DNA from: Escherichia coli
GTDB lineage: Bacteria > Pseudomonadota > Gammaproteobacteria > Enterobacterales > Enterobacteriaceae
DNA: 64,000 nucleotides
Reading direction: 5' to 3' (one strand)
Assembly: GCF_045037415.1 (NCBI RefSeq)
Contig: NZ_CP173438.1
In this document: piece after piece, positions 10,787 to 57,251 of the stretch
Position numbering within the stretch: position 1 is the first letter of the stretch
Layout: every line of letters begins with the position of its first letter
Position numbers and translations under genes: made by a program
The notes under the pieces: model-generated
Seen by the model: the letters and a program-made list of their open reading frames with translations, nothing else
The model's database searches: none
What the model was told of the DNA's origin: nothing

Positions 10787-10796
10787 ATTTCCCTCG

Positions 10797-12304: not shown

Positions 12305-12376
12305 ATCCTGCTCCTGGTTAATATAACAGAAACGATAAATACAGCGCTTTTCTATCGTTATAATAAAAAATAGTGA

Positions 12377-13387: not shown

Positions 13388-13397
13388 ATTTGTTCCC

Positions 13398-16205: not shown

Positions 16206-16955
16206 TTAACGAGCGAAGAAAAAGTCATCAAAATCGCTGATGGAAGCGTCTTGTTTGAAGATTTTGATCAGTTCATTTTTGCTGTTTTCCAGATGTCTCC
16301 AGGACGCTTCCCTGGCGAGCTCTGAATCTTTCTGTTGCAGAGCCAGGAAAATAGCCCGGTGATCTTCCAGCCATTGCAGACGCAAATGCTTTTCATGCAG
16401 GTACTTGTAGTTAAGTTTCTTCCAGCGGGGGTTTTCTGTACGAACTGCCCGCCATAATTCAGCAGCTTGTTTGATGAGTACCCGATTTTGCGTCGCTTCG
16501 GCAATAATGCTATGAAATCGGTGATCCAGGTCTTCAAATTTATCACTTTCCGCAGCGATGGCTTTTTCCTGTAATCCAATGATTTTCTTCAACTCTTGTA
16601 ACTCGTTAAAGCTGATCTGGCTGGCAGCAAAACCGGTAATATTGCTCTCAATTACCTGACGTGCCTGTAACAGTTCAAACGGGCCAATTTCTGAATAGGG
16701 CATTAATGATTTCTGGTTGAGCTTATCGGTGGAGTCGACAAAGAAAATCCCTGACCCTTGCTTCACATTCAATACGCCTTTCAGTTCCAGCATAATGATG
16801 GCTTCACGAATGGTAGTTCGGCTGGTATTAAACCGCTCGCTCAGTTCACGTTCTGAAGGTAAGCGTTCTCCGGCCTTAAATACGCCTGAATACAGCAGCT
16901 CTTCAATCTGTAGACCAATATCGTAATAGCGGCGCTTTGTAATAACCTGTTCCAT
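16206..16955 (-). CDS. GntR/FadR-family transcriptional regulator
   Basis: 249-aa ORF with N-terminal GntR helix-turn-helix (LPSERELSERFNTSRTTIREAI) and an FCD-like C-terminal domain; sits upstream of the TRAP/dehydrogenase operon on the same strand. Confidence 0.8.
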   Translation of the reverse strand: MEQVITKRRYYDIGLQIEELLYSGVFKAGERLPSERELSERFNTSRTTIREAIIMLELKGVLNVKQGSGIFFVDSTDKLNQKSLMPYSEIGPFELLQARQVIESNITGFAASQISFNELQELKKIIGLQEKAIAAESDKFEDLDHRFHSIIAEATQNRVLIKQAAELWRAVRTENPRWKKLNYKYLHEKHLRLQWLEDHRAIFLALQQKDSELAREASWRHLENSKNELIKIFKQDASISDFDDFFFAR

Positions 16956-41697: not shown

Positions 41698-43197
41698 ATG
41701 CTAAATTTATTTGTTGGCCTTGATATATACACAGGGCTTTTGTTATTACTTGCTCTGGCATTTGTGTTGTTCTACGAAGCAATCAATGGTTTTCATGACA
41801 CGGCGAATGCGGTGGCAACCGTTATTTATACTCGTGCCATGCAACCACAACTTGCTGTGGTGATGGCGGCATTTTTTAATTTTTTTGGCGTGTTATTGGG
41901 CGGACTTAGCGTTGCCTATGCCATTGTCCATATGTTACCAACCGATTTGTTGCTGAATATGGGGTCAACTCACGGCCTGGCGATGGTCTTTTCCATGCTG
42001 CTGGCGGCGATTATCTGGAACCTGGGAACGTGGTTCTTTGGTTTACCGGCCTCCAGTTCGCACACCTTGATTGGTGCGATTATCGGCATCGGTTTAACCA
42101 ACGCGCTGTTAACCGGCTCATCGGTGATGGATGCGTTAAACCTGCGTGAAGTGACCAAAATTTTCTCCTCGCTGATTGTTTCCCCTATCGTCGGCCTGGT
42201 CATTGCGGGTGGTCTGATTTTCCTGCTGCGCCGTTTCTGGAGCGGGACGAAAAAGCGTGACCGTATTCACCGCATTCCGGAAGATCGCAAAAAGAAAAAA
42301 GGCAAACGTAAGCCGCCATTCTGGACGCGTATTGCGCTGATTGTTTCCGCTGCGGGCGTGGCGTTTTCGCACGGCGCTAACGACGGGCAGAAAGGGATCG
42401 GCCTGGTAATGCTGGTACTGGTGGGGATTGCCCCTGCTGGCTTCGTCGTCAATATGAACGCGTCCGGCTATGAAATTACCCGTACCCGCGATGCCGTCAC
42501 CAACTTCGAACACTACCTGCAACAGCATCCTGAACTGCCGCAGAAGTTGATTGCGATGGAACCTCCATTGCCTGCGGCATCGACTGATGGCGCGCAAGTG
42601 ACGGAGTTTCACTGTCATCCGGCAAATACCTTTGATGCGATTGCGCGCGTTAAAACGATGCTGCCAGGCAATATGGAAAGCTACGAGCCGTTAAGCGTGA
42701 GTCAGCGCAGCCAGCTGCGCCGCATTATGCTGTGCATCTCTGATACTTCCGCGAAGCTGGCGAAACTGCCAGGCGTCAGTAAAGAAGACCAGAACCTGCT
42801 GAAAAAACTGCGCAGCGATATGTTAAGCACCATTGAGTACGCACCGGTATGGATCATCATGGCAGTAGCACTGGCGCTCGGCATTGGCACCATGATTGGC
42901 TGGCGTCGTGTAGCGATGACCATCGGTGAGAAGATTGGTAAGCGCGGCATGACGTATGCGCAAGGCATGGCGGCACAAATGACGGCGGCAGTGTCTATCG
43001 GCCTTGCCAGTTATATTGGGATGCCCGTCTCCACAACACACGTACTCTCATCTGCCGTAGCAGGAACGATGGTGGTGGACGGCGGTGGGTTACAGCGTAA
43101 AACGGTAACCAGCATCCTGATGGCGTGGGTGTTTACTTTACCGGCGGCGATTTTTCTTTCTGGTGGGTTGTACTGGATAGCATTGCAGTTGATTTAA
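41698..43197 (+). CDS. pitB: Low-affinity inorganic phosphate transporter (PiT family)
   Basis: 499-aa [44 protein letters not shown]... with the PiT GANDGQK signature. Confidence 0.95.
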
Positions 43198-43245
43198 CCT
43201 TCCTGAAAATGCCCGGTCCTGGCGATCGGGCATTTCCATTTTTGA

Positions 43246-43938
43246 CTAGTGATAACCACGCGCGGTCATAAAATCCGTAATCGCTTTTTCTGCATCAATC
43301 AGCACCTTTTCCAGTGGCTGATTAGCATCGATATCAACCAGTTGTGCACCGCCAAAGGTTAACTGTGGCGTTATGGCAATCTTCCTCGCCAGCGATTCCC
43401 GTTTATGGTCGGGTTTACGCGCGCAGGCAACTTCAAGGTCAACATTGAGTTTGATGACCAGATCAGGTTTATGGCTCGCCATCCAGTGAAACGCTTTACG
43501 TTCCTGGCTTGCCAGCCATGAGACAAAACGACCACCTTCAATGTTAGGTGGGAACACTGTACCATCGTAAGCGCCAGGAATTTGGTCCTGAGGATAACGG
43601 TCGGTTAGAACAATTAACCCGCGACGACGACAGGCAAGCATATGACGAAAGCGCAGTAAGCGACGGGCGACAAACGCTGTAATTACCAGCGCCGGAACTG
43701 GTCCTGGCAATTTTTTTGCTGTTTTCACCTGATTTCGTTCAATTGTTTTATGTAAGGATTTTCCCATCAACGGTAATTTTGTCACTGAACGACCGACATT
43801 TCCGGCCTGTTTTCCTAAATGAACTCTTTCGGCAGCACCATATTTTTCGACAACGGTAATGAGATGTTCACACACCGTTGACTTGCCTGAACCATCGCTA
43901 CCAATAACGGCAATTAATGGAGGTGTTATTGACTGCAT
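43246..43938 (-). CDS. yghT: P-loop nucleotide/nucleoside-kinase-like protein YghT
   Basis: 230-aa ORF with Walker [10 protein letters not shown], a TDRYPQ motif and a lid-like ARKPDH block; paralogous to the two following genes. Confidence 0.85.
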
Positions 43939-44111
43939 GAATATATCCTTTAATTTAAATATCCATTAAAAATATTTATTTGGTTAATATGTTTTTATGA
44001 AAGCGTAATTCAGGTCAATGTCACAATTAACCATTGTCACAATAAGGTTGAACGGATATTCTGAGCACGGACCACGTAATATTCAATACATTATTTGCTG
44101 CCGGGTTTTTC

Positions 44112-44825
44112 GTGAATCAACGTAATATGTCAATAATTAATTCCACGCCAGTGCGTGTTATTGCCATTGTAGGATGTGATGGTTCAGGTAAATCGACCCT
44201 CACGGCAAGCCTGGTAAATGAACTGGCAGCAACAATGCCAACAGAACACATTTATCTCGGGCAATCGTCCGGGCGAATTGGCGAATGGATTTCACAGCTC
44301 CCTGTTATTGGCGCACCTTTTGGGCGTTATCTGCGAAGTAAAGCGGCACATGTGCACGAAAAGCCCTCCACACCGCCTGGCAATATGACTGCGCTGGTTA
44401 TCTATCTGCTTTCCTGCTGGCGGGCGTATAAGTTTCGCAAAATGTTGTGTAAAAGCCAGCAAGGCTATCTGCTCATCACCGACCGCTACCCGCAGGTTGA
44501 AGTGCCGGGTTTTCGCTTTGATGGCCCGCAATTGGCAAAAACCACGGGCGGTAACGGTTGGATAAAAATGTTAAGGCAGCGCGAGCTGAAGCTGTACCAA
44601 TGGATGGCATCTTATTTGCCCGTATTGTTGATTCGTCTTGGCATTGATGAACAAACCGCGTTTGCGCGTAAACCTGACCACCAACTGGCGGCGTTACAGG
44701 AAAAAATCGCCGTTACGCCGCAACTGACATTTAATGGCGCCAGGATCCTTGAACTGGATGGTCGGCAACCAGCCGATGAAATTCTGCAAGCGTCACTACG
44801 CGCAATTCAAGCTGCGCTTTCCTGA
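44112..44825 (+). CDS. yghS: P-loop kinase-like protein YghS
   Basis: 237-aa ORF starting at GTG (44112); Walker A GCDGSGKST, TDRYPQ, ARKPDH. Confidence 0.85.
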   Translation: MNQRNMSIINSTPVRVIAIVGCDGSGKSTLTASLVNELAATMPTEHIYLGQSSGRIGEWISQLPVIGAPFGRYLRSKAAHVHEKPSTPPGNMTALVIYLLSCWRAYKFRKMLCKSQQGYLLITDRYPQVEVPGFRFDGPQLAKTTGGNGWIKMLRQRELKLYQWMASYLPVLLIRLGIDEQTAFARKPDHQLAALQEKIAVTPQLTFNGARILELDGRQPADEILQASLRAIQAALS

Positions 44826-44856
44826 TCACCAAAATGGATAGGGGATGATTTAACGA

Positions 44857-45630
44857 ATGGACGCACTACAAACACAAACTGTTAATAGTACAACCGCGCC
44901 GCAGCCCAACTACATTCCGGGGCTGATTGCGGTGGTCGGGTGTGATGGCACCGGTAAATCCACACTGACCACCGACCTCGTGAAATCGCTGCAACAACAC
45001 TGGCAAACCGAGCGGCGCTATCTGGGGCTGCTCTCGGGCGAAGACGGCGACAAAATCAAACGATTGCCGTTGGTTGGCGTCTGGCTCGAAAGGCGACTGG
45101 CGGCCAAATCATCGAAAACCCAAAGCATGAAAACCCAAAGCATGAAAACCAAATCTCCAGCGCTATGGGCGGCGGTGATTATGTACTGCTTCTCGCTGCG
45201 AAGAATGGCGAATCTACGCAAGGTTCAGCGACTGGCGCAAAGTGGCGTTCTGGTGGTCAGCGATCGCTTCCCGCAGGCTGAAATTTCGGGCTTTTATTAT
45301 GACGGACCGGGGATCGGCGTCGAACGTGCGACCGGGAAAATCAGCATGTTTCTGGCGCAGCGCGAACGGCGTTTATACCAAAAAATGGCGCAATACCGTC
45401 CTGAATTAATCATTCGTTTGGGGATTGATATTGATACTGCCATCTCCCGCAAGCCTGACCATGACTATGCCGAGCTGCAGGACAAAATCGGCGTCATGTC
45501 GACGATTGGCTATAACGGCACAAAAATTCTTGAGATTGATTCCAGAGCGCCCTACAGCGAAGTGCTGGAACAGGCACAGAAGGCGGTTTCTCTGGTTGCC
45601 ATCGTTTCTGACCGCCGAAGTTTAACTTAA
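44857..45630 (+). CDS. yghR: P-loop kinase-like protein YghR (carries an internal 5-aa tandem repeat)
   Basis: 257-aa ORF MDALQTQTVNSTTAPQPNYIPGLIAVVGCDGTGKST...; SDRFPQ and SRKPDH motifs. Confidence 0.85.
   Translation: MDALQTQTVNSTTAPQPNYIPGLIAVVGCDGTGKSTLTTDLVKSLQQHWQTERRYLGLLSGEDGDKIKRLPLVGVWLERRLAAKSSKTQSMKTQSMKTKSPALWAAVIMYCFSLRRMANLRKVQRLAQSGVLVVSDRFPQAEISGFYYDGPGIGVERATGKISMFLAQRERRLYQKMAQYRPELIIRLGIDIDTAISRKPDHDYAELQDKIGVMSTIGYNGTKILEIDSRAPYSEVLEQAQKAVSLVAIVSDRRSLT
45115..45150 (+). repeat. In-frame 15-bp tandem duplication inside yghR
   Basis: AAAACCCAAAGCATG occurs twice in tandem, followed by a partial third copy (AAAACC), encoding ...KTQSMKTQSMKTKS... Confidence 0.9.
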
Positions 45631-45675
45631 GGCTGGCGGGATACTTTTTACTATCAACGATAAGGTCAGGCTGAA

Positions 45676-47025
45676 TTGGCGGGTTTTAACATCAAACATT
45701 GGTTTGCAGATGGCGCGTTTCGCACCATTATTCGCAATAGCGCCTGGTTAGGCTCCAGTAATGTCGTGAGCGCTTTACTGGGTCTGTTGGCGCTCTCGTG
45801 TGCCGGTAAAGGGATGACGCCCGCCATGTTTGGCGTACTGGTGATTGTACAATCGTACGCCAAGTCGATCAGCGATTTTATTAAGTTTCAGATATGGCAG
45901 CTGGTGGTTCAGTACGGAACACCAGCATTAACCAACAATAATCCGCAGCAATTCCGCAATGTCGTCTCATTTTCCTTCTCGCTGGATATCGTCAGCGGCG
46001 CGGTGGCGATTGTCGGCGGCATTGCCTTACTCCCTTTTCTTTCCCATTCATTAGGTCTGGATGACCAAAGCTTTTGGCTGGCAGCGCTGTATTGCACGCT
46101 CATTCCTTCAATGGCTTCCTCCACGCCGACCGGCATTCTGCGTGCGGTAGATCGCTTCGATCTAATTGCTGTACAGCAAGCGACGAAACCTTTTCTGCGC
46201 GCAGCGGGGAGCGTCGTAGCCTGGTATTTTGACTTTGGTTTTGCGGGTTTTGTTATTGCCTGGTACGTGTCGAATCTGGTTGGCGGCACCATGTACTGGT
46301 GGTTTGCCGCGCGCGAATTACGCCGCAGAAATATCCATAACGCCTTCAAATTGAATCTGTTTGAGTCTGCCCGACACATTAAAGGCGCGTGGAGTTTTGT
46401 CTGGTCAACCAACATTGCCCACTCCATCTGGTCGGCGCGTAACTCGTGCAGCACAGTGCTGGTGGGGATCGTGTTAGGACCCGCTGCCGCCGGGTTATTT
46501 AAAATCGCCATGACATTCTTCGACGCCGCCGGAACGCCAGCGGGTTTACTGGGCAAAAGTTTTTACCCAGAGGTGATGCGTTTAGATCCGCGCACCACCA
46601 GACCGTGGTTGTTAGGCGTGAAGTCAGGTTTACTGGCGGGCGGAATTGGTATTCTGGTGGCGCTCGCGGTGTTGATCGTCGGCAAGCCGCTTATTTCGCT
46701 GGTGTTTGGCGTTAAGTATCTCGAAGCGTATGACCTGATTCAGGTGATGCTGGGCGCAATTGTGATTTCGATGCTGGGCTTCCCACAGGAGTCATTGCTA
46801 TTGATGGCGGGAAAACAGCGCGCTTTTCTCGTGGCGCAAACCATCGCCTCAATCGGCTACATCGTATTGCTGTTCATGTTCTGTCATCTGTTTGGCGTGC
46901 TGGGAGCAGCGTTTGCTTATTTCGGTGGGCAATGTCTGGATGTGGTGCTCTCGTTAATTCCGACCTTAAAGGCATTTTTTCAGCGCCATTCCTTGCTTTA
47001 TAACGCAGCCGGAGAGAAATCCTGA
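45676..47025 (+). CDS. yghQ: MOP-superfamily (Wzx-like) polytopic membrane protein YghQ; start uncertain
   Basis: 449-aa track ORF beginning at TTG 45676 with AAGG 9 nt upstream; highly hydrophobic multi-TM protein. Stop overlaps the start of the next gene (TGATG). Confidence 0.75.
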   Translation: MAGFNIKHWFADGAFRTIIRNSAWLGSSNVVSALLGLLALSCAGKGMTPAMFGVLVIVQSYAKSISDFIKFQIWQLVVQYGTPALTNNNPQQFRNVVSFSFSLDIVSGAVAIVGGIALLPFLSHSLGLDDQSFWLAALYCTLIPSMASSTPTGILRAVDRFDLIAVQQATKPFLRAAGSVVAWYFDFGFAGFVIAWYVSNLVGGTMYWWFAARELRRRNIHNAFKLNLFESARHIKGAWSFVWSTNIAHSIWSARNSCSTVLVGIVLGPAAAGLFKIAMTFFDAAGTPAGLLGKSFYPEVMRLDPRTTRPWLLGVKSGLLAGGIGILVALAVLIVGKPLISLVFGVKYLEAYDLIQVMLGAIVISMLGFPQESLLLMAGKQRAFLVAQTIASIGYIVLLFMFCHLFGVLGAAFAYFGGQCLDVVLSLIPTLKAFFQRHSLLYNAAGEKS

Positions 47026-47849
47026 TGATGAGAAAATATTTCCCGCTTGAGGCGAGCGAGCGTTTATTTGTTGCAGTTGAAGAAGATGATGTCGTTGATG
47101 CACAGGTCAGTTTGCCGCCGACTATCGCACTAAGTTGTACCACCGAAATCATCCATGATAATTACGCGTTATGCCTGCAATTCTGGCTCAATGGCGTCAA
47201 TCGCCAGGAGTTACTGCGTTTAATATGCAAACAGGCCAAAGGCGATGAGCTGACTGCTGATGAGCGCAAACAATTTAAATACATGCGAGCGCGCTACAAG
47301 CACCTGCGTTTTGCGCAACGGCTGTATTTAAAGAAGCATCAGGCCGGATTTTTATTCGGCAAAACGACCGTTTTTTTGGGGCGTTTTCAGGACGGTTTTC
47401 GTAACGGTAAGAAAAATATTGTGTCGTATTACGGCAACTTGTTACGGGTTTATTTAAGCTCTCCGGTCTGGTCGTTGGTGAACTATTCATTACGCCATAG
47501 CCAGTTAGAAAGCGTAAGCGGTTTTATTGCCTATCGGCAAAAGCAAATGCATACCCTGAAAGAGATAATTGCCAAACCGCGACTCACCGGCAGGGAATTT
47601 CATGATGTGCGAAAAATCATCAGCCAGCAGGTTTCTTATTACGACACCTTAAGATCGCTTGATCCTGAAAATAAAGAGGCGTTACAGATTTCCCGCTTCC
47701 TCGCCGCCATTAATGGCCTGATGGGGGATAAACACGACGACATGGTGGCGGATGATATGGAAAACCGCCAGTCGTATGATGCACCGGTGGCGCTGGATAG
47801 CGATATTCGCCAGCGCTTAGAGCTGCTGATTTCGCGTTTTCCGCTATAA
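47025..47849 (+). CDS. Hypothetical soluble protein, no recognisable family
   Basis: 274-aa ORF MMRKYFPLEASERLFVAVEEDD...; coding assignment rests on length, coupling to yghQ (1-nt overlap) and operon context. Confidence 0.6.
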   Translation: MMRKYFPLEASERLFVAVEEDDVVDAQVSLPPTIALSCTTEIIHDNYALCLQFWLNGVNRQELLRLICKQAKGDELTADERKQFKYMRARYKHLRFAQRLYLKKHQAGFLFGKTTVFLGRFQDGFRNGKKNIVSYYGNLLRVYLSSPVWSLVNYSLRHSQLESVSGFIAYRQKQMHTLKEIIAKPRLTGREFHDVRKIISQQVSYYDTLRSLDPENKEALQISRFLAAINGLMGDKHDDMVADDMENRQSYDAPVALDSDIRQRLELLISRFPL

Positions 47850-47857
47850 CCGGAGCA

Positions 47858-48421
47858 ATGATGTCATCTCGTTTGATTATTGCGCTGATTATCATGCTCT
47901 TAGCCCAGGGTGTGCAGGCACACAATTTTGTCACTGGCAAAACGGTTACCCCCGTTTATATCCAGGAAGGCGGCGAGCTGCTTCTGAATAGCGACGACGA
48001 AATTCACTACCAAAAGTGGAACAGCACACAGCTGGCGGGAAAAGTCCGCATTATCCAGTATATCGCCGGGCGTAAGTCGGCGAAGAAAAAGAACTCACTG
48101 TTAATTAAAGCGGTTGAAGCGGCAAACTTTCCGCAGGATCGTTTTCAGCCCACCACCATTGTGAACACCGATGATGCCATCTTTGGTACTGGCTATTTTG
48201 TCGTTGGCAAAATCGAAAAAAATAAACGCCGCTATCCGTGGGCGCAATTCGTTATTGACGGCAATGGACTGGGACGCGTTGCCTGGCGGTTGCCGGAGCA
48301 GAGTTCAACCATTCTGGTGCTGAATAAAGACGGGCAAATTCAGTGGGCAAAGGACGGCAGCCTGACGCCGGAAGAGGTAGATCATGTCATTGCGCTGGCG
48401 CAGAAACTGATCAATGAATAA
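47858..48421 (+). CDS. YtfJ-family periplasmic protein
   Basis: 187-aa ORF with signal peptide MMSSRLIIALIIMLLAQGVQA and GGAG Shine-Dalgarno; body resembles my recollection of YtfJ (QKWNS..LAGKVR..QYIAGR, TTIVNTDDAI, LNKDG..QWAKDG.LTPEEV). Confidence 0.65.
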   Translation: MMSSRLIIALIIMLLAQGVQAHNFVTGKTVTPVYIQEGGELLLNSDDEIHYQKWNSTQLAGKVRIIQYIAGRKSAKKKNSLLIKAVEAANFPQDRFQPTTIVNTDDAIFGTGYFVVGKIEKNKRRYPWAQFVIDGNGLGRVAWRLPEQSSTILVLNKDGQIQWAKDGSLTPEEVDHVIALAQKLINE

Positions 48422-48451
48422 AAAATTCAAAGGATTGAGGGTGTTAGTGAG

Positions 48452-49522
48452 ATGAAGCTGGTTGAACACTACATCATGCGTGGTACGCGCCGTCTGGTGC
48501 TGATTATCGTCGGTTTTCTGATCTTTATTTTCGCCAGCTACTCCGCACAGCGTTATCTGACCGAAGCGGCAAATGGGACCTTAGCTCTTGATGTTGTGCT
48601 GGATATCGTTTTCTACAAAGTGCTGATTGCACTGGAGATGTTGTTACCTGTTGGTCTGTATGTGTCAGTTGGCGTGACGCTAGGGCAGATGTATACCGAC
48701 TCGGAAATTACCGCTATCTCTGCGGCGGGGGGCAATCCGGGACGCTTGTACAAAGCCGTTCTTTATCTGGCGATACCGCTAAGTATTTTTGTCACCCTTC
48801 TGTCGATGTATGGTCGGCCGTGGGCTTATGCGCAGATTTATCAACTGGAGCAACAGTCGCAGTCGGAGCTGGATGTTCGCCAGTTGCGGGCAAAGAAATT
48901 TAACACTAACGATAACGGACGAATGATCCTTTCGCAGACGGTTGATCAGGATAATAATCGCCTGACTGACGCGCTGATTTATACTTCTACTGCCAATCGA
49001 ACCCGCATTTTCCGCGCCCGTTCGGTTGATGTGGTTGACCCATCACCTGAGAAACCGACCGTTATGTTGCATAACGGGACCGCCTATCTTCTCGATCATC
49101 AGGGGCGTGACGACAACGAACAGATCTACCGTAATCTGCAATTACATCTGAATCCGCTGGATCAAAGCCCTAACGTCAAACGCAAAGCAAAATCGGTCAC
49201 GGAGCTGGCGCGCTCAGCCTTTCCTGCCGATCATGCCGAACTGCAATGGCGACAAAGCCGTGGCCTGACAGCATTGTTGATGGCGCTGCTGGCCATTTCA
49301 TTAAGTCGGGTAAAACCGCGGCAAGGGCGATTTTCAACGTTATTGCCACTGACATTGCTGTTTGTTGCCATTTTTTATGGCGGCGACGTCTGCCGTACGC
49401 TGGTGGCTAACGGTGCGATTCCCCTCATTCCTGGTTTGTGGTTAGTACCCGGACTCATGCTAATGGGCCTGCTGATGCTGGTCGCACGCGACTTCTCTTT
49501 GCTGCAGAAATTTTCCCGATGA
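48452..49522 (+). CDS. LptF/LptG-family (YjgP/YjgQ) permease paralog
   Basis: 356-aa ORF: three N-terminal TM segments, a central soluble domain and C-terminal TM segments, the architecture of LPS-export permeases. Confidence 0.75.
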   Translation: MKLVEHYIMRGTRRLVLIIVGFLIFIFASYSAQRYLTEAANGTLALDVVLDIVFYKVLIALEMLLPVGLYVSVGVTLGQMYTDSEITAISAAGGNPGRLYKAVLYLAIPLSIFVTLLSMYGRPWAYAQIYQLEQQSQSELDVRQLRAKKFNTNDNGRMILSQTVDQDNNRLTDALIYTSTANRTRIFRARSVDVVDPSPEKPTVMLHNGTAYLLDHQGRDDNEQIYRNLQLHLNPLDQSPNVKRKAKSVTELARSAFPADHAELQWRQSRGLTALLMALLAISLSRVKPRQGRFSTLLPLTLLFVAIFYGGDVCRTLVANGAIPLIPGLWLVPGLMLMGLLMLVARDFSLLQKFSR

Positions 49523-50598
49523 ATGTTTTCAGTCGCTATTTAATCCGTCATCTCTTTCTCGGTTTTGCCGCCGCCGCAGGGCTATTGCTGCCGCTTTTTA
49601 CCACCTTCAACCTGATTAACGAACTGGATGATGTCAGCCCGGGCGGTTATCGCTGGACTCAGGCGGTGCTGGTGGTGCTGATGACCTTACCGCGTACACT
49701 GGTCGAACTTTCGCCGTTTATCGCATTATTGGGAGGGATTGTTGGCCTGGGGCAGTTATCGAAAAACAGTGAGCTTACCGCCATTCGCAGCACTGGGTTT
49801 TCTATCTTCCGTATTGCACTGGTGGCGCTGGTTGCCGGGATATTGTGGACTGTTTCGTTAGGCGCGATAGATGAGTGGGTGGCGTCGCCATTGCAGCAAC
49901 AGGCGCTGCAAATCAAATCGACTGCCACCGCGTTGGGGGAGGACGATGACATTACCGGCAATATGCTTTGGGCCAGGCGCGGTAATGAATTTGTGACGGT
50001 GAAATCGCTGAACGAGCAGGGCCAGCCTGTGGGCGTGGAGATATTTCATTATCGCGACGATCTCTCGCTCGAATCCTACATTTTTGCACGCAGTGCCTCC
50101 ATTGAAGACGACAAAACGTGGATCCTGCATGGTGTGAATCATAAAAAATGGTTGAATGGCAAAGAAACGCTGGAAACATCAGATAATCTTGCCTGGCAAT
50201 CGGCCTTCACCAGTATGGATCTTGAAGAGTTATCGATGCCGGGGAATACTTTTTCTGTCCGTCAGCTTAATCATTACATCCATTATTTGCAGGAAACCGG
50301 ACAACCCAGCAGCGAATACCGCCTTGCACTGTGGGAAAAACTGGGGCAACCGATCCTGACCCTGGCGATGATTTTGCTGGCTGTGCCGTTCACCTTTAGC
50401 GCCCCGCGCTCGCCAGGGATGGGTAGCCGTCTCGCTGTAGGCGTCATCGTTGGCTTACTCACCTGGATCAGCTATCAAATCATGGTCAATCTGGGATTGT
50501 TATTTGCGTTGAGCGCACCTGTTACCGCGCTCGGTTTACCGGTAGCGTTTGTGTTGGTGGCGTTGAGCCTGGTGTATTGGTATGACAGACAACATTAA
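49519..50598 (+). CDS. LptF/LptG-family (YjgP/YjgQ) permease paralog, LptG-like
   Basis: Track ORF 49438..50598; preferred start ATG at 49519 (MNVFSRYLIRHLFLGFAAAAGLLLPLFTTFNLINELDDV...) overlapping the upstream stop (ATGA). The N-terminus and LSKNSELTAIRSTGFS block parallel E. coli LptG. Confidence 0.78.
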   Translation: MNVFSRYLIRHLFLGFAAAAGLLLPLFTTFNLINELDDVSPGGYRWTQAVLVVLMTLPRTLVELSPFIALLGGIVGLGQLSKNSELTAIRSTGFSIFRIALVALVAGILWTVSLGAIDEWVASPLQQQALQIKSTATALGEDDDITGNMLWARRGNEFVTVKSLNEQGQPVGVEIFHYRDDLSLESYIFARSASIEDDKTWILHGVNHKKWLNGKETLETSDNLAWQSAFTSMDLEELSMPGNTFSVRQLNHYIHYLQETGQPSSEYRLALWEKLGQPILTLAMILLAVPFTFSAPRSPGMGSRLAVGVIVGLLTWISYQIMVNLGLLFALSAPVTALGLPVAFVLVALSLVYWYDRQH

Positions 50599-50632
50599 AC
50601 CCGCCGTGGCGCAACACCACAGCGGGCTCACA
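50599..50632. terminator. Stem-loop between the convergent LptG-like gene and the AOS-like gene
   Basis: CCCGCCGTGG-CGCAACA-CCACAGCGGG, imperfect 10-bp inverted repeat filling the 34-bp gap between two convergent stop codons. Confidence 0.45.
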
Positions 50633-51805
50633 TTACTGCTTCAGAGTAGCAAATGCCTGAATGATGGCATCGATTTGCTCACGACTGTGGGCAGCGTTTA
50701 CGCTACAGCGCAGCAGAGTGATGCCTGCAGGCGCGGCAGGTGGCAGGATAAGATTCACATAAACGCCCAGCGAAATAAGCTCGCGCCAGATGCGTAAACC
50801 TTCCTCTTTCGAACCGATTATTACTGGCACTACCGGGCTAATATGTGAACTTAACTCATAACCCAGTTTTTGCAGACCGTCATACAGATGGTTGGCGTTA
50901 TCCATCAGTTTTTGCCGCAGCTCTGGTTGTGTGGCAATGGTTCTTAACGACGAGCGCACGGTCGCAATGCAGGACGGAGAAGGAGAGGCGGTAAAAATAT
51001 ACGGGCGGCTGCCGTAGCGCAGCACTTCCATCGCTTCCGAACCGACAGCAAAACCGCCAATCGAGGCCAGACTTTTACTGAAAGTACCAACGATAATATC
51101 CACATCATCTTCAACGCCAACGGCTTCAGCCAGTCCGCGCCCCGTTGCGCCTAACACGCCAAACGAATGCGCTTCATCGACAATCAAATAACCACCGAGA
51201 CGACGTTTGATATCAACAATTTCCGCTAACGGCGCAACGTCACCGAGCATGCTGTAGATGCCCTCAACGATGATAATCGCCTCTTTCGCCCGTTCACCGA
51301 GGCGAACCATGCGCCGTTCCAGATCTTTAGCATCGTTATGGCGGAAACGAATAATTTCTGCGCCACCGAGAGAACAGGCGTCATAAATACTGGCGTGGCT
51401 GTCGGCATCCAGTAACACCACGGCGTTATGGTCGGCAAGTGCGCTGATGACGCCTAAATTAGCGGTATAACCGGTTGAAAAAACGATAGCGGTAGGGCGA
51501 TTGAAAAACTCGGCAATCTCTTTCTCTAACGCCAGGTGCGGCGCATAACTGCCGTTTGCCATACGAGAACCGGTGGTGCCGGTGCCTTGGGCCGCTAACG
51601 CTGCCTGACCTTCGGCGATGGCATCATGATTAAAGGTTAAACCGAGATAATTATTGGTCCCGGCCAGAATCACTTTTTTATTGCCGATCCGACCTTCGGT
51701 GGCGGAATACACTTCATCAATACAGGTGCCAAACGGTGTTAACCCGTTGTCACTAAATTGCAGTCGCTCGCCAGCAAGGCGCGCATATTTATCGTATAGC
51801 CCCAT
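50633..51805 (-). CDS. PLP-dependent alpha-oxoamine synthase (serine palmitoyltransferase / BioF / Kbl family)
   Basis: 390-aa ORF with VDEAHSFG and the PLP-lysine block GTFSKS; start ATG overlaps the ACP stop (TAATG). Confidence 0.85.
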   Translation of the reverse strand: MGLYDKYARLAGERLQFSDNGLTPFGTCIDEVYSATEGRIGNKKVILAGTNNYLGLTFNHDAIAEGQAALAAQGTGTTGSRMANGSYAPHLALEKEIAEFFNRPTAIVFSTGYTANLGVISALADHNAVVLLDADSHASIYDACSLGGAEIIRFRHNDAKDLERRMVRLGERAKEAIIIVEGIYSMLGDVAPLAEIVDIKRRLGGYLIVDEAHSFGVLGATGRGLAEAVGVEDDVDIIVGTFSKSLASIGGFAVGSEAMEVLRYGSRPYIFTASPSPSCIATVRSSLRTIATQPELRQKLMDNANHLYDGLQKLGYELSSHISPVVPVIIGSKEEGLRIWRELISLGVYVNLILPPAAPAGITLLRCSVNAAHSREQIDAIIQAFATLKQ

Positions 51806-52053
51806 TATTTATTCTCCAGCCATGGAAGTAGAGTTTCCATTAATTGCGCAGGGGTTTTGACATCCAGCAGAATATTAATAGGAATGGAAATATCGAATCT
51901 GTCTTCCAGCATCATTAAGAGATCCATCACTTTGATCGACTCCAGGCCAAGATCGTTGACGAGATCGCTGTCGGGCTTAATTTCCACACCGTTTTCGACC
52001 AAATCCTGTAAACAGGAAAGGATGTAATCCATTACTATTTCACGATTTACCAT
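51805..52053 (-). CDS. Acyl carrier protein
   Basis: 82-aa acidic protein with a phosphopantetheine-attachment-like DLGLESI motif. Confidence 0.75.
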   Translation of the reverse strand: MVNREIVMDYILSCLQDLVENGVEIKPDSDLVNDLGLESIKVMDLLMMLEDRFDISIPINILLDVKTPAQLMETLLPWLENK

Positions 52054-52084
52054 AGAAACGTTAACACACCTTTAAACAAGACAA

Positions 52085-52999
52085 TCAAAATAGCCCGTTG
52101 CGTAATGCGTGTTCCAGGCTAATCCCGGGAAACCAATTAATATCTTCAGAAATACGGTTATTACTTGCCGACCAGTCGGCATGGGTTAATTCACGGATTT
52201 TCGAACGAGTCAGCATCGGTTCTTTACCCGCCAGACGGCTCAACGCGGTACTGATATCCGCAAGGCAGGTGAGTAGCGGCAGAGGAATACCGACCATCCG
52301 CACGGAACCACAGCGGACATCGGCAACAAGCTGTTGGACACGTTGCCAGTCATAGCCTCCGGCGACGCCATCGCATAATTCATAGGTTTGCGTCTGTACA
52401 GTTTCGGCGCTTAACCACTGACCCACTGCTTGCGCAAAATCGGTGACGTGCAGGAAAGAGAGCTGTGTCTCTGGCGTGCCAAGTCGTGGCAGCAGACCGC
52501 GCAGCATCCAGTCAAACAGCGGTTTTAACTCTTTATCGCCGGGACCATACACGGCTGTCGGGCGAAAAACGCCCAACGTAATTGCGTCAGCCATTGCAGT
52601 CAGCTGTTGTTCGGCGACGTGTTTGGAATTTGCGTACCAGGAGAGTTCGGGATGGCGCGCCGCCAGCGAAGAGATAAACAGAAATCGTTGGCAAAAGCCG
52701 CTCTCTTTTGCCGCTTGCATCAGGCGCAGGCTGCCGTCAACGTTGCAGCGGGTAAAAATCTCTTCTTTGTGCCCGCGCACTTGCCCGGCGCAATGGACCA
52801 CCGCGCTGGCTCCGGTAACCAGTTCGCTAAGCGAATGTGTATCTTCCAGCGAACCGCGCACCCAAGTGAGATTATCATTGACGTGAGCGCGGGCAGTACG
52901 CGTCAATGCGCGAACGTGAAAGCCGCGGGCGAGCAGGTTATCAATAATATATTTACCGATAAACCCGGTAGCGCCCGTCACCGCGACAGTTTGATTCAT
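52085..52999 (-). CDS. NAD(P)-dependent epimerase/dehydratase-family (extended SDR) reductase
   Basis: 304-aa ORF with Rossmann VTGATGFIG and catalytic YxxxK (YANSK); start ATG overlaps the upstream stop (ATGA). Confidence 0.82.
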   Translation of the reverse strand: MNQTVAVTGATGFIGKYIIDNLLARGFHVRALTRTARAHVNDNLTWVRGSLEDTHSLSELVTGASAVVHCAGQVRGHKEEIFTRCNVDGSLRLMQAAKESGFCQRFLFISSLAARHPELSWYANSKHVAEQQLTAMADAITLGVFRPTAVYGPGDKELKPLFDWMLRGLLPRLGTPETQLSFLHVTDFAQAVGQWLSAETVQTQTYELCDGVAGGYDWQRVQQLVADVRCGSVRMVGIPLPLLTCLADISTALSRLAGKEPMLTRSKIRELTHADWSASNNRISEDINWFPGISLEHALRNGLF

Positions 53000-54744
53000 G
53001 CCAGGGACTCCTGCACATGAAGACTGGCAGCATAAGCCTTCTGATAACGTTTTTTCGCTTCCGCACGGGCAGGCTTGCCGGAGGATGTTCGGGGAATACT
53101 GTGGGGCGGCAACAGATCGATATCCGCGGTAACGCCAAATTCGCTTTGGATCCGTGCTGCCAGCGCGTGGATAAGCTGCCCGCGACGTTCTTCATCGCTG
53201 ATCCGACACTGGATCTGCAAAATGATTTTTTCCTGGGCGGTAACAAAAGCAATCGCATCGCCAGAATGAATTTCCGGTTCCTGTTCCGCAATATATTCAA
53301 TATCCTGCGGCCAGATATTACGGCCACGAATAATAATCAGATCTTTAATGCGTCCGGTGACATACAGATAACCGTCCAGCAGATAACCGAGGTCGCCGGT
53401 GTCTAACCAGCCCGTCGCGGCAATCTCGTCTTGTGAAATCTGGTCGCCAAAGTAACCGCTCATCAGGCTAGGGCCGGAGATGCAAATATGGCCTACCACA
53501 CGTTCCGCGACAGGTATACCTGCTTCATTGCGGATTTCAATGCCATGTTCCGGCAACGCTTTACCGCAGTTGACGAAAGTCGATACGGCGCGTGTTTCAG
53601 CACCCGGCGCGACGGCTTTACCCTGGTATTCGAGGATGTCGCGATCCACTTCGTTAACCACAACCCCGGAAGCTTCATCAGAGAAGCTGACAGCCAGCGC
53701 ATTTTCTGCCAGTCCGTAGCACGGCATGAAAGTTTTATCGTCAAAGTTGACCTGACGGAAACATTCAGCGAATTGATGGAGTTGTTCTGCGGAGATGGGT
53801 TCTGCACCAATACCAGCGACGCGCCAGCAGGAAAGATCCAGTTCAGCGAGATCTTTTTCATTCACGCGGCGCTGGCACAATTCATAGCCAAACGGCGGCG
53901 CAACGGAAACGGTGCCGCGATTTTTACTGATCAATTTAAGCCATTGCAGAGGACGCATGGCAAAATCCTGAGTGCGCAAATAATCTACTGAAAGCTGCGT
54001 GGCGACGGGGGTCAGGAGAAAGCCGACCAGTCCCATATCATGGTAGAAAGGCAGCCAGGAGACGCAGCGGTCGCCAGGGCGTAATTTAATCCCATCGTGG
54101 CTTATAGCACGTAGATTAGCCATCACTTCGCGGTGAGTAATGATAACGCCACGGGGAAAACGGGTGCTGCCGGAGGTGTACTGGAGGTAGGCGATATCGT
54201 TTGGAACTGGACGTTGAAGCGCAACATCGGCTTCCGGTAATGCCTTAAACCAGGCGTGGCTTAAAACATGTAATTCGGGATTGTTATGCGTCGCGGCATT
54301 GACCAGTGGCAACCACTCATCACCAGTGATAATGGCTGCGGGCTGGCAACTTGCCAGTAACCCCTGCAGTTTGGCGCTCCAGGAATCCCGCTGACCGACG
54401 CCCATTGGAATCGCCAACGGGACGGCGACTAAGCCGGCATACTGGCAGGCAAAAAAAGCCTCTACAAACCCGCTACTCGTTTCGGCAATCAGTGCCACGC
54501 GATCGCCTTTTTTCAGGTTCAGCGATAACAACCGCTTCGCACCAGCTTCGGCACGCGCTTTTAACGTCTGATATTCCAGTTGATCTTCAAGTTGGCAACG
54601 TCTGTCATAAAAATTCATTCCAGCGCTACTCAGAGCGGCATAGTCCAAAGCATCAACCAGCGTTGGAAAATCGGCATAGCGCATAGGTAGGGAATGCGTA
54701 AAGATTTTATTAGACATATACACCACGAAAAAATTGGATATCAA
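52996..54744 (-). CDS. Fatty acyl-AMP ligase / acyl-ACP synthetase (AMP-dependent synthetase family); start uncertain
   Basis: Track ORF starts at TTG 54744; an in-frame ATG at 54717 (MSNKIF...) is the alternative. AMP-binding core YTSGSTRFPRGV and a C-terminal ...SGKPAR... block. Confidence 0.82.
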   Translation of the reverse strand: MISNFFVVYMSNKIFTHSLPMRYADFPTLVDALDYAALSSAGMNFYDRRCQLEDQLEYQTLKARAEAGAKRLLSLNLKKGDRVALIAETSSGFVEAFFACQYAGLVAVPLAIPMGVGQRDSWSAKLQGLLASCQPAAIITGDEWLPLVNAATHNNPELHVLSHAWFKALPEADVALQRPVPNDIAYLQYTSGSTRFPRGVIITHREVMANLRAISHDGIKLRPGDRCVSWLPFYHDMGLVGFLLTPVATQLSVDYLRTQDFAMRPLQWLKLISKNRGTVSVAPPFGYELCQRRVNEKDLAELDLSCWRVAGIGAEPISAEQLHQFAECFRQVNFDDKTFMPCYGLAENALAVSFSDEASGVVVNEVDRDILEYQGKAVAPGAETRAVSTFVNCGKALPEHGIEIRNEAGIPVAERVVGHICISGPSLMSGYFGDQISQDEIAATGWLDTGDLGYLLDGYLYVTGRIKDLIIIRGRNIWPQDIEYIAEQEPEIHSGDAIAFVTAQEKIILQIQCRISDEERRGQLIHALAARIQSEFGVTADIDLLPPHSIPRTSSGKPARAEAKKRYQKAYAASLHVQESLA

Positions 54745-55087
54745 AAATAAAATGACAATAATGCGGTGGATTATATAGGCATAAAAGATAAATGAGATAG
54801 TATTTTCATCGGTGCGATATTGAACATTGATTTAAATAATAGGTTTTGTTTTGTTGTTTTTATTGTGAATGATATTTGATTTATGAATGTATTAAGAATG
54901 AACCTTGTCTGACCGCATTAAATCGCTAAAAGGCATTGTGGCGCTTCTTCGTTGGCTGTGATCTTATCGTAATCATTAATAAATAATATTTATTCTTATT
55001 TTGTATTCATGGTGTTGATTATTAAGATGCCGTTCGTTGCTGTTGCAACCTGTTTTTCATCGTTAATTATTTGTTATCCACAGAGAT
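54745..55087. promoter_or_regulatory. AT-rich divergent intergenic region between the lipid-synthesis operon and yghO
   Basis: ~340 bp of visibly AT-rich sequence with A/T tracts (e.g. TTTTGTTTTGTTGTTTTTATTGTGAATGATATTTGATTTATGAATG) between two divergent starts. Confidence 0.4.
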
Positions 55088-56230
55088 ATGGAATGCGATC
55101 TGCTGATGATTAAAATTGAAAAAGTAATTAATAAAAATGACCTTAAGGCATTTATCGCTTTTCCGTCATCACTTTATCCCGACGATCCAAACTGGATACC
55201 CCCTTTATTCATTGAACGCAACGAGCATTTGTCTGCGAAAAATCCGGGGACGGACCATATCATCTGGCAGGCGTGGGTGGCAAAAAAAGCGGGGCAGATA
55301 GTTGGGCGTATTACCGCGCAAATAGATACCTTGCACCGCGAGCGTTACGGCAAAGATACCGGTCATTTCGGCATGATTGACGCCATTGATGATCCGCAGG
55401 TTTTTGCCGCGTTGTTTGGCGCAGCGGAAGCGTGGTTGAAGTCACAAGGTGCAAGTAAGATCAGCGGTCCTTTCAGCCTGAATATCAATCAGGAAAGCGG
55501 ATTACTGATTGAAGGTTTCGATACACCACCCTGTGCGATGATGCCGCACGGTAAACCGTGGTATGCCGCGCATATTGAACAATTGGGTTATCACAAAGGC
55601 ATTGATTTACTGGCGTGGTGGATGCAGCGAACCGATCTCACTTTCTCTCCGGCGCTAAAAAAACTGATGGATCAGGTGCGTAAGAAGGTGACCATTCGCT
55701 GCATCAATCGCCAGCGGTTTGCCGAAGAGATGCAGATCCTGCGTGAGATTTTCAATTCTGGCTGGCAGCACAACTGGGGATTTGTGCCGTTTACCGAACA
55801 TGAATTCGCGACCATGGGCGACCAACTTAAATATCTGGTGCCGGACGATATGATCTACATCGCTGAGATTGATTCTGCACCCTGCGCGTTTATTGTCGGC
55901 TTGCCAAACATCAACGAGGCGATTGCCGATCTGAACGGATCGCTCTTTCCCTTCGGCTGGGCAAAATTGCTGTGGCGTTTAAAAGTCAGCGGTGTGCGAA
56001 CTGCGCGAGTACCGCTGATGGGCGTGCGGGACGAGTATCAGTTCAGCCGCATCGGCCCGGTGATTGCGTTGTTATTGATTGAAGCCTTACGCGATCCGTT
56101 TGCCCGCCGGAAGATCGATGCGCTGGAGATGTCATGGATCCTCGAAACCAATACAGGCATGAATAACATGCTGGAACGCATTGGGGCGGAGCCGTACAAG
56201 CGTTACCGATTGTATGAAAAGCAGATTTGA
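55088..56230 (+). CDS. yghO: GNAT-like acyltransferase-family protein YghO, apparently intact
   Basis: 380-aa continuous ORF MECDLLMIKIEKVINKNDLKAF... (alternative start ATG at 55106). I recall K-12 yghO being annotated as a pseudogene. Confidence 0.7.
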   Translation: MECDLLMIKIEKVINKNDLKAFIAFPSSLYPDDPNWIPPLFIERNEHLSAKNPGTDHIIWQAWVAKKAGQIVGRITAQIDTLHRERYGKDTGHFGMIDAIDDPQVFAALFGAAEAWLKSQGASKISGPFSLNINQESGLLIEGFDTPPCAMMPHGKPWYAAHIEQLGYHKGIDLLAWWMQRTDLTFSPALKKLMDQVRKKVTIRCINRQRFAEEMQILREIFNSGWQHNWGFVPFTEHEFATMGDQLKYLVPDDMIYIAEIDSAPCAFIVGLPNINEAIADLNGSLFPFGWAKLLWRLKVSGVRTARVPLMGVRDEYQFSRIGPVIALLLIEALRDPFARRKIDALEMSWILETNTGMNNMLERIGAEPYKRYRLYEKQI

Positions 56231-56236
56231 TGGCAG

Positions 56237-57001
56237 TCACCCCTGCTTCATCTCCAGCGGCACCGCCGAGCGAATCAAATGGTGGCCTTCCAGCTCGATA
56301 TCGTGGAGATTCTTTTTCACGGTCCGCACATGATCGCGTGCTGCGCGCTGGGCGACGTGCGGCAGCCGCTGCAACACCGCGTTGTAGATCCGCGCATGCT
56401 GGCGATCGATCTGCTTTTTTTGCTGTGGTCGATGGTAGAGATTATTTACGCTGGCAAACACCGAATTAAACATCAGGTCGGTCAATGATTGCAGCGTAAA
56501 CTCCAGCACCTGATTGTGAGAAGCCTGACAAATGGCGAGATGGAAAGCGTGATCCAACTGCGCATGTTCGATCAGCGAAATCTCTTTGTTGTTCTCACTG
56601 GCGGCGAGCATTTTTTCATAACAGCGGGTTATCACAACAAAATCAGCCTGGGTTCCCAGCGTTGCCGCCAGCCTTGCCGATTCGCCCTCCAGTAATGCGC
56701 GAACGTCGAGCAGATCGTACAGCGTTCGCGGCTGCGTACTGAACAGATGGATCAGCGGGCTGGTGTCCTGCACCCGATTAAGCCGTGCGACACGAGAATC
56801 GCGACCCTGCGCCGTTTCAATAATCCCGCGCCCGCGCAGCACGGTCAGCCCTTCACGCAGTGCGGAGCGTGAGAAGCCGAGCTTTTCACACAGTCGACGT
56901 TCCGAGGGAAGCGGCTGACCGACCTTCAGTACGCCGTCGATAATTAACCGTTCGATACTCTCTGCAACCACTTCGCAAATAGGGCGACGTTCATCTTTCA
57001 T
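56237..57001 (-). CDS. glcC: GntR/FadR-family glycolate-responsive activator
   Basis: Track ORF 56237..57061; preferred start ATG at 57001 (MKDERRPICEVVAESIERLI...), 254 aa. Confidence 0.93.
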   Translation of the reverse strand: MKDERRPICEVVAESIERLIIDGVLKVGQPLPSERRLCEKLGFSRSALREGLTVLRGRGIIETAQGRDSRVARLNRVQDTSPLIHLFSTQPRTLYDLLDVRALLEGESARLAATLGTQADFVVITRCYEKMLAASENNKEISLIEHAQLDHAFHLAICQASHNQVLEFTLQSLTDLMFNSVFASVNNLYHRPQQKKQIDRQHARIYNAVLQRLPHVAQRAARDHVRTVKKNLHDIELEGHHLIRSAVPLEMKQG

Positions 57002-57251
57002 TCCCGGACCTCGTGCACAGGTAGGACCAATTTTTCTGTTCTTAACTCGCAAAACACGCACATCACGTAAGTGATTATGTTACATCAATTTAACATTAAG
57101 TTAACCAAGACAAGGTCACAGAGCTGGAAAAAAAATGGTCTGACCGGTAGCTAAAGAGATAGACGAAAACGAAAAGCCCGCTTAATAACTGTTCACAGAA
57201 GCAGCGCGAAAAAATCAGCTGCCACACAACACAACAAAGCGAAGCCTACTC
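57002..57251. promoter_or_regulatory. Divergent glcC / glcD promoter region
   Basis: Intergenic gap between divergent glcC and glcD; individual sites not mapped. Confidence 0.5.

Follow-up and report, generated by a model that had tools for sequence, protein, structure and literature searches.

Four closely spaced minus-strand genes of this Escherichia coli genome bring together a fatty acid ligase, a reductase, an acyl carrier protein (ACP) and an alpha-oxoamine synthase, which raises the question of what lipid their products make. The preliminary description of the 64,000-nucleotide stretch that was analysed (the window) saw in them either the logic of 3-ketosphinganine formation plus keto-reduction, or another acyl-amino-acid or aminolipid head-group pathway. 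We are highly confident that the locus is the E. coli version of aasR-cerR-acpR-spt, the operon for sphingolipid (dihydroceramide) synthesis in proteobacteria. The operon itself is already known: spt is named in RefSeq, the ligase structure has been solved, and three of the proteins have been assayed in their BL21 forms (Padilla-Gomez 2022; Patil 2021). Its features are as follows.

50633-54717, minus strand: four-gene operon aasR-cerR-acpR-spt, 5' end moved from 54744
52996..54717, minus strand: aasR, fatty acyl-AMP ligase (FAAL)/acyl-AcpR synthetase (EcFAAL), from NF006624, 3PBK and BL21 identity
52085..52999, minus strand: predicted CerR/Epi-type extended SDR, an NDUFA9-like NAD(P)-dependent keto-reductase of the long-chain base, from Pfam PF01370, motifs and homologues
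51805..52053, minus strand: acpR, dedicated ACP with its 4'-phosphopantetheine site at Ser39 in DLGLESI, from BL21 identity and homologue alignment
50633..51805, minus strand: spt, serine palmitoyltransferase (SPT), a PLP-dependent alpha-oxoamine synthase, from NF047599, 2JG2 and BL21 identity
50596..50630, no strand assigned: GC-rich hairpin of 16 pairs between the convergent spt and lptG2 stops, from a terminator-like scan
54718..55087, no strand assigned: divergent AT-rich region of 370 bp (29.7% GC) between aasR and yghO, from composition

The minus-strand letters at the junctions were inspected directly and the coordinates confirmed by script, and this reading bears out the close packing and overlapping junctions first described. 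The ligase stop TGA shares letters with the SDR start ATG (ATGA, 52996-52999), exactly 31 bp separate the end of the SDR gene (52085) from the first base of the ACP gene (52053), and the final A of the ACP stop TAA is the first base of the spt ATG (TAATG, 51803-51807). All four motifs quoted at the outset are found in the translations: YTSGSTRFPRGV in the ligase, DLGLESI in the ACP, GTFSKS in the synthase and YANSK in the SDR. Of the original limits, 50633-54744, the first stands, whereas the TTG at 54744 probably overextends the ligase by 27 nt. That TTG is the start of the longest open reading frame and has no ribosome-binding site, the ligase N-terminus is conserved in Enterobacterales orthologues as far as approximately the ATG at 54717, with weaker conservation upstream, and the crystallised construct 3PBK starts at the position matching this ATG. 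These observations make 54717 the most likely ligase start and 50633-54717 the most likely extent of the operon. RefSeq starts the ligase at 54684, and annotates the four genes as fatty acyl-AMP ligase, NAD-dependent epimerase/dehydratase, ACP and spt. Over the interval the letters match an E. coli chromosome at 100% identity, and 4067 of 5426 complete E. coli genomes (about three quarters) contain at least 80% of it.

The SDR and spt starts are preceded at 8-9 nt by Shine-Dalgarno-like sequences (AGGAG and GGAG) that fall within the genes before them, which fits translational coupling; the overlapping junctions and conserved gene order likewise suggest that the genes are co-transcribed and translationally coupled. 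The hairpin, whose T-tract is weak, is probably the 3' end of the operon transcript, with a putative terminator function. Within 54718-55087 a promoter scan gave no sigma-70 match above chance and there was no Rfam match; we infer a possible regulatory role for this region. The same order on one strand recurs in 51 of the 54 other-species loci that carry all four genes, from Enterobacterales to Caulobacter, so it is more than an accident of this genome. The ATGA overlap is retained across Enterobacterales; most loci have -14 to +3 nt between the ACP gene and spt, and two have +17 and +86.

The ligase falls among fatty-acid-activating enzymes, scoring 868 bits against the NCBIfam FAAL model NF006624 (cutoff 600). 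It is identical to BL21(DE3) ECD_02851 at 552 of 562 positions, and aligns ungapped with PDB 3PBK (residues 3-575, from the MSNKIF start to the C-terminus) at ~99% identity, with about nine substitutions; the FAAL-specific insertion is therefore present by identity. 3PBK is EcFAAL, the same protein as AasR (Zhang et al. 2011, as cited in passages of PMC8460268 and PMC11837247). AasR adenylates a free fatty acid and passes the acyl group to a dedicated ACP, not to CoA, an activity published for near-identical proteins (PMC8460268, PMC9386255). Passages of the structural papers describe EcFAAL loading holo-EcACP, which is not necessarily this AcpR (PMC8460268), and FAAL crystallised with C12/C14 adenylates (PMC11837247). 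The same passages treat EcFAAL as a model FAAL and draw no link to sphingolipids, and the word 'sphingolipid' is absent from the 2025 FAAL review (PMC11837247). The partner, AcpR, is a small acidic four-helix ACP with the D-L-G-L-D/E-S serine, encoded directly 5' of spt, and falls short of the cutoffs of the housekeeping ACP models that it matches. It is identical to BL21(DE3) ECD_02853 (82/82), Ser39 is invariant across 79 homologues, and the BL21 protein carries 4'-phosphopantetheine (PMC9386255).

The synthase scores 600.1 bits against the NCBIfam Spt equivalog NF047599 (cutoff 500), and is identical to BL21(DE3) ECD_02854 at 388 of 390 positions. The preliminary description had proposed comparing its active site with an Spt crystal structure; against Sphingomonas paucimobilis SPT (2JG2), the structural reference for the bacterial enzymes and 47% identical over the full length, all catalytic residues are conserved. 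The equivalents of its PLP lysine Lys265 and of His159, Asp231, His234 and Arg390, namely Lys244 (in GTFSKS), His137, Asp210, His213 and Arg366, are invariant across 82 aligned sequences. In crude extracts, SPT(Ec) of BL21 converts L-[14C]serine to a product migrating with 3-oxo-sphinganine and prefers acyl-AcpR over acyl-CoA, and AasR(Ec), AcpR(Ec) and SPT(Ec) together yield 3-oxo-sphinganine in vivo (PMC9386255).

The assignment of the reductase leans on Caulobacter genetics, from which it is inferred to act as a 3-keto reductase. It matches Pfam Epimerase PF01370 (9.6e-24), has NDUFA9 subunits of complex I among its best PDB sequence matches, and reaches no curated family cutoff among NCBIfam profiles, in which no curated CerR/Epi model exists. 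All 58 homologues with a covered N-terminus retain its TGxxGxxG (residues 8-15), and across 62 homologues there is little or no variation at Ser110, Tyr122 and Lys126 (the latter two in YANSK). It is 290/304 identical to BL21(DE3) ECD_02852. Full-length identity to the Caulobacter homologues, whose genes likewise sit between aasR and acpR, is 32-34%; the published figure for Caulobacter Epi (CC_1164/CCNA_01222) is 34% (E 7e-38). Whether the substrate is 3-oxo-sphinganine or N-acylated 3-oxo-ceramide is disputed (PMC11087976), as is the cell compartment of the reductase, and the published evidence is genetic, from Caulobacter.

The neighbouring genes are as follows.

55088..56230, plus strand: yghO, bCerS/Aca-type N-acyltransferase (bacterial ceramide synthase homologue), divergent from the operon
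48452..50598, plus strand: lptF2-lptG2, second LptF/LptG permease pair (TIGR04407, 316 bits; TIGR04408, 306 bits)
43246..48421, no single strand: linked accessory genes yghT (minus strand), yghS, yghR, yghQ, a 274-aa hypothetical protein and a YtfJ-family protein, co-retained with spt

YghO has a tandem-GNAT fold, is orthologous to Caulobacter CC_1154/CCNA_01212 and is identical to BL21(DE3) ECD_02850 (380/380). Lying just outside the interval first noted, it is, by analogy with Caulobacter, the fifth essential gene, with a predicted N-acyltransferase product. LptF2 and LptG2 are only 29% and 28% identical to canonical K-12 LptF and LptG, and their genes adjoin spt in many taxa; a role for Caulobacter LptF2G2 has been described (bioRxiv 10.64898/2026.04.12.717747), and the E. 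coli pair is a candidate sphingolipid exporter. Both yghO and lptF2G2 are found nearby in many of the loci compared, and the accessory genes remain with spt in most Enterobacterales loci despite rearrangements. YghR, YghS and YghT are three P-loop kinase-fold paralogs, of which YghS has a dTMP-kinase-like fold, and YghQ is a weak MOP flippase match.

In the proposed pathway, AasR would adenylate a long-chain free fatty acid and transfer the acyl group to the 4'-phosphopantetheine arm of AcpR only, because the CoA pocket is blocked. Spt would form an external aldimine with L-serine on Lys244 and carry out decarboxylative condensation with acyl-AcpR to give 3-oxo-sphinganine; YghO would then attach a second acyl chain, and the NDUFA9-like SDR would reduce the 3-keto group to yield dihydroceramide. 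Loading and condensation have been shown experimentally for near-identical E. coli proteins, while N-acylation, reduction and their order are predicted from the Caulobacter orthologues. The sequence first proposed, from activation through ACP loading and 3-ketosphinganine to keto-reduction, thus finds support in the profile scores and in the BL21(DE3) biochemistry, in which the proteins loaded ACP and made 3-oxo-sphinganine from L-serine (PMC9386255 and passages of PMC8460268).

The aminolipid alternative is not supported. A synthase of BioF/Kbl-like or other alpha-oxoamine type, acting on glycine, alanine or cysteate towards another aminolipid or sulfonolipid head group, is very improbable, although BioF, Kbl and cysteate acyltransferase are clear Spt homologues (PDB matches of 1e-50 to 1e-60) and relaxed thioester specificity has been published for these SPTs (PMC9386255). 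Among these families the synthase exceeds the curated cutoff of the Spt equivalog alone; bioF (334 bits, cutoff 426), Kbl (298, cutoff 460) and ALAS (220, cutoff 339) all fall below theirs, so that the synthase does not score as the pimeloyl-specific BioF, and a pimeloyl substrate would be at odds with a long-chain FAAL of the kind crystallised in the passages cited above. The nearly identical BL21 enzyme, moreover, incorporates serine. Leu354 stands in place of Arg378, the residue of S. paucimobilis SPT that contacts the serine carboxylate, but this position is hydrophobic (Leu/Ile/Met/Val) throughout the clade, Caulobacter homologues included, and is therefore no argument against Spt activity. 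It is hardly credible that the FAAL and its ACP supply the starter for a polyketide or lipopeptide pathway, with the synthase as a mere tailoring enzyme. FAALs do usually supply PKS/NRPS lines (passages of PMC11837247), and AasR matches NRPS/PKS loading-domain models below their cutoffs, but the gene content contradicts this reading: PKS and NRPS genes are absent from the 64-kb window, the ACP gene and the start of spt overlap in most taxa examined, and the experimentally preferred substrate of Spt is acyl-AcpR.

Whether the dihydroceramide operon is used in nature is a separate matter. The operon may be silent in laboratory culture, because 3-oxo-sphinganine was not detected in BL21 empty-vector controls (PMC9386255), and the literature searched held no report of sphingolipid from unmodified E. 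coli. The locus could then be a cryptic remnant whose enzymes work if over-expressed but make no natural sphingolipid: its control region is AT-rich and could be silenced, K-12 has lost the operon beside an IS5 with no known defect, and about a quarter of complete E. coli genomes lack most of the interval. We regard this as unlikely, though by no means negligible. Every reading frame is intact, the genes that differ from BL21 all have dN/dS values of 0.06-0.10, and the whole 13-gene neighbourhood is retained in many Enterobacterales genera at 60-88% protein identity. The low dN/dS and the retained neighbourhood point therefore to selection for function under some natural condition. A tentative extension, possible but doubtful, is that most E. 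coli natively make an undetected outer-membrane sphingolipid under non-laboratory conditions, with a head group unlike that of Caulobacter; the dTMP-kinase-fold YghR/S/T would phosphorylate or build this head group in place of CpgB, with YghQ as flippase and LptF2G2, together with housekeeping LptB, as exporter.

The operon itself adds nothing new, and its remaining significance lies in its genomic context. About three quarters of the complete genomes of the best-studied bacterium encode a full ceramide pathway that is under purifying selection, yet a native sphingolipid is unreported in the literature searched, and standard K-12 strains are without the operon. Bacterial sphingolipids of other gut taxa modulate immunity. 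Knowledge of the native product, of the condition that induces it and of its route of export would inform outer-membrane biology, host interaction and the question of why K-12-based lipidomics missed it.

The closest known system is E. coli BL21(DE3) ECD_02851-ECD_02854 with yghO ECD_02850 (AasR, Epi, AcpR, SPT and Aca; Padilla-Gomez et al. 2022, PMC9386255), which is the same locus with the same order and junctions, and differs by strain-level substitutions only, commonest in the SDR (14/304). Caulobacter crescentus CC_1165-CC_1162 (aasR, epi/cerR, acpR, spt) has the same four-gene order on one strand, with published identities to E. coli of 53% for Spt, 42% for AasR, 34% for Epi and 44% for Aca. 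The GNAT acyltransferase (CC_1154, aca/bcerS), LptF2/G2 and a flippase-like protein (CC_1166) are accessory classes found in both. The E. coli-type locus lacks homologues of the Caulobacter DAGK-like ceramide kinase CpgB, the cpg head-group genes and LptC2, and unlike Caulobacter has YghR/S/T, the YtfJ-family protein and the 274-aa hypothetical protein; these differences in gene content suggest that the final E. coli lipid is probably different. Compared with S. paucimobilis SPT, the E. coli enzyme is set apart by its preference for acyl-AcpR over acyl-CoA. The eukaryotic SPT/KDSR/CerS pathway shares the first-step chemistry and the end product class (dihydroceramide), whereas the bacterial enzymes are soluble and use a dedicated acyl-ACP instead of acyl-CoA. 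The bacterial reductase (NDUFA9-like SDR) and ceramide synthase (GNAT) are unrelated to eukaryotic KDSR and CerS, and the order of acylation and reduction in bacteria may be the reverse of that in eukaryotes.

The operon lies on the minus strand, most likely at 50633-54717, and RefSeq names its genes as a fatty acyl-AMP ligase (aasR), an NAD-dependent epimerase/dehydratase family protein (the SDR reductase), an acyl carrier protein (acpR) and spt (serine palmitoyltransferase). It is flanked on one side by yghO and the glc operon, and on the other by lptG/lptF paralogs, a YtfJ-family gene, a hypothetical gene, yghQ, yghR, yghS and yghT. The preliminary description had claimed three close junctions between the four genes, and each was borne out when the minus strand was read across 50560-55120 and the coordinates were scripted; the four protein motifs it quoted are also all found in the sequence.

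Junctions and non-coding features of the operon
52996-52999, minus strand: ATGA, the ligase stop overlapping the reductase start
Reductase stop to ACP start, minus strand: gap of exactly 31 bp
51803-51807, minus strand: TAATG, the ACP stop overlapping the synthase start
50596-50630: GC-rich hairpin of 16 pairs with a weak T-tract, exactly between the convergent spt and lptG2 stops and overlapping the lptG2 stop
54718-55087: divergent aasR-yghO intergenic region, 370 bp, 29.7% GC vs about 51% in the flanking genes

AGGAG or GGAG elements sit 8-9 nt 5' of the reductase and synthase starts, within the preceding genes. The ligase 5' end had been placed at a TTG at 54744, which lacks a ribosome-binding site, and we favour the ATG at 54717 instead. 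Conservation among Enterobacterales ligase orthologues extends to about this ATG and is weaker further upstream, and the crystallised construct (PDB 3PBK) starts at the same position; the RefSeq start is 54684. Promoter and terminator consensus scans gave chance-level results, with the sole exception of the hairpin after spt, which could serve as a bidirectional terminator. Taken together, the junctions, the conserved gene order and this hairpin suggest that the four genes are co-transcribed. The AT-rich divergent region upstream is plausibly a silenced promoter region, judging from its composition; no RNA family or above-chance promoter match was found in it, and an Rfam scan of 43000-57200 returned no match. 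The repeats seen there are short and AT-rich.

Against the NCBIfam Spt equivalog NF047599, which has a cutoff of 500, the synthase reaches 600 bits. It does not reach the cutoffs of the sister families BioF (334 vs 426), Kbl (298 vs 460) or ALAS, and is 47% identical to the SPT of S. paucimobilis. Comparison of the active site with an Spt structure had been proposed, and the equivalents of His159, Asp231, His234, Lys265 and Arg390 of the S. paucimobilis enzyme are invariant in an alignment of 82 sequences. Arg378 of Sphingomonas SPT is Leu354 in the window's protein, which might be taken as evidence against an Spt identity; we dropped this objection because, in the same alignment, the position is Leu, Ile, Met, Val or Phe across the whole clade to which the window's protein belongs, Caulobacter homologues included. 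The ligase reaches 868 bits against the NCBIfam FAAL model NF006624 (cutoff 600) and is about 99% identical, ungapped, to PDB 3PBK, the E. coli FAAL whose crystals contained lauroyl and myristoyl adenylate (PMC11837247). Given these curated NCBIfam scores, neither finding named beforehand as contradicting the proposed pathway, a BioF synthase or a ligase outside the fatty-acid-activating families, was obtained. FAALs may also be considered as primers of PKS/NRPS assembly, a role rejected here because the window holds no PKS or NRPS genes. All 79 homologues of the ACP keep its serine. The reductase carries a Pfam Epimerase domain, has NDUFA9 among its best solved relatives, and conserves TGxxGxxG and Ser110/Tyr122/Lys126 across 62 homologues.

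The same locus has been studied in BL21(DE3) as ECD_02851 to ECD_02854 by Padilla-Gomez et al. 2022 (PMC9386255), and the window's proteins are near-identical to those of that strain (AasR 552/562, SDR 290/304, AcpR 82/82, SPT 388/390, YghO 380/380). AcpR(Ec) carries 4'-phosphopantetheine, and the combination of AasR(Ec), AcpR(Ec) and SPT(Ec) produces 3-oxo-sphinganine in vivo, a compound absent from BL21 empty-vector controls (PMC9386255). Extracts containing SPT(Ec) convert L-[14C]serine and palmitoyl-AcpR to 3-oxo-sphinganine, with palmitoyl-AcpR preferred over acyl-CoA or acyl-AcpP (PMC9386255). Independently, Patil et al. 2021 loaded holo-EcACP with fatty acid using EcFAAL (PMC8460268). 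The main reading of the preliminary description, 3-ketosphinganine formation plus a keto-reduction step, was thus right on the profile scores and these assays, the reductase step being predicted. By analogy with the assayed proteins, AasR would adenylate a fatty acid and transfer it to AcpR, and Spt would condense the acyl group with serine to give 3-oxo-sphinganine. From orthology and fold, the SDR probably reduces the 3-keto group and YghO, a homologue of the bCerS/Aca-type N-acyltransferases, probably performs N-acylation. The K-12 annotation of YghO as a 'putative DNA-binding transcriptional regulator' is at odds with its GNAT fold.

Two laboratories disagree on the order of these last two steps. 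According to one, reduction precedes acylation, as in eukaryotes (PMC9386255); according to the other, acylation comes first, on the grounds that oxidised ceramide builds up when cerR is mutated and that CerR has been reported to be periplasmic (PMC11087976). In the homologue alignment, neither the E. coli SDR nor its Caulobacter homologues have an N-terminal signal peptide ahead of the Rossmann motif.

A scan with an Spt alignment, taking one genome per species, gave 80 loci, which were compared by tblastn with thirteen E. coli proteins before reading frames were called. Of the 54 loci with a full set of four genes, 51 carry them collinearly on a single strand; these span Enterobacterales (Hafnia, Pseudocitrobacter, Shimwellia, Citrobacter youngae, Pluralibacter, Cedecea, Mangrovibacter, Rosenbergiella, Erwinia endophytica, Tatumella and Serratia species) as well as Nitrospira, Geobacter, Methylotenera and Caulobacter. 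Enterobacterales retain the ATGA overlap, and the ACP gene adjoins or overlaps spt nearly everywhere among loci with frames called. Most loci have a divergent upstream yghO homologue, and many have lptF2/lptG2 homologues close by. Within E. coli, the interval matches a chromosome of the species at 100% identity, and of 5426 complete genomes, 4067 contain at least 80% of it; dN/dS against BL21 is 0.06-0.10 for every gene that differs. In K-12 MG1655, an IS5 element (insH9) borders yghO and a truncated yghQ (355 vs 449 aa; 9044-12409 of the K-12 locus against window 45676-56230), and the strain lacks the genes for the ligase, reductase and ACP as well as spt, lptG2, lptF2 and the ytfJ-like and hypothetical genes.

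Elsewhere in the window, a lower-GC block (0.44-0.48) at 9482-16955, between ftsP and ygiQ, encodes a TRAP transporter, three dehydrogenases and an FCD-family regulator. As ftsP lies directly next to ygiQ in BL21(DE3), this block is a strain-variable sugar-acid utilisation island.

The operon is already annotated, solved in part structurally, and has biochemistry for three of its four genes. What novelty is left lies outside the operon itself, in the native product and the accessory genes YghR/S/T, YghQ and LptF2G2. The literature searched described no sphingolipid made by unmodified E. coli, and nothing relevant tying yghQ/R/S/T to sphingolipids. RefSeq calls YghS and YghT 'dTMP kinase', a name that lacks family-level support (25-31 bits vs a cutoff of 83), and YghS has only weak P-loop matches in Pfam. 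In yghR, a 15-bp tandem duplication at about 45100-45130 gives KTQSM-KTQSM, single-copy in BL21(DE3) YghR (252 vs 257 aa). The 274-aa hypothetical protein matches nothing in Pfam or NCBIfam; it and a YtfJ-family periplasmic protein (window 47025-48421) accompany the locus in Enterobacterales.

LptF2 and LptG2 (48452-50598), labelled plainly 'LptF' and 'LptG' in RefSeq, score above the LptF and LptG equivalog cutoffs; their identity to the canonical K-12 proteins is only 29% and 28%. The annotation of the locus includes no second lptB or lptC, and the 274-aa protein has no family assignment. A 2026 preprint, in which the E. coli UTI89 locus is already depicted as one for sphingolipids, reports that Caulobacter LptF2 and LptG2 form a complex that also includes LptB, are deletable only where anionic sphingolipid is not made, and are implicated in sphingolipid export with the housekeeping LptB (bioRxiv 10.64898/2026.04.12.717747). 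The Caulobacter region comprises 17 genes (PMC11324152), and its proteins are 53% (Spt), 42% (AasR), 34% (Epi) and 44% (Aca/YghO) identical to those of E. coli (PMC9386255). By tblastn, yghR/S/T, yghQ and the 274-aa gene also occur with spt in Rhodocyclaceae, Methylotenera, Luteibacter and Dyella, whereas Caulobacter has spt without them and carries instead CpgB, a DAGK-like ceramide kinase.
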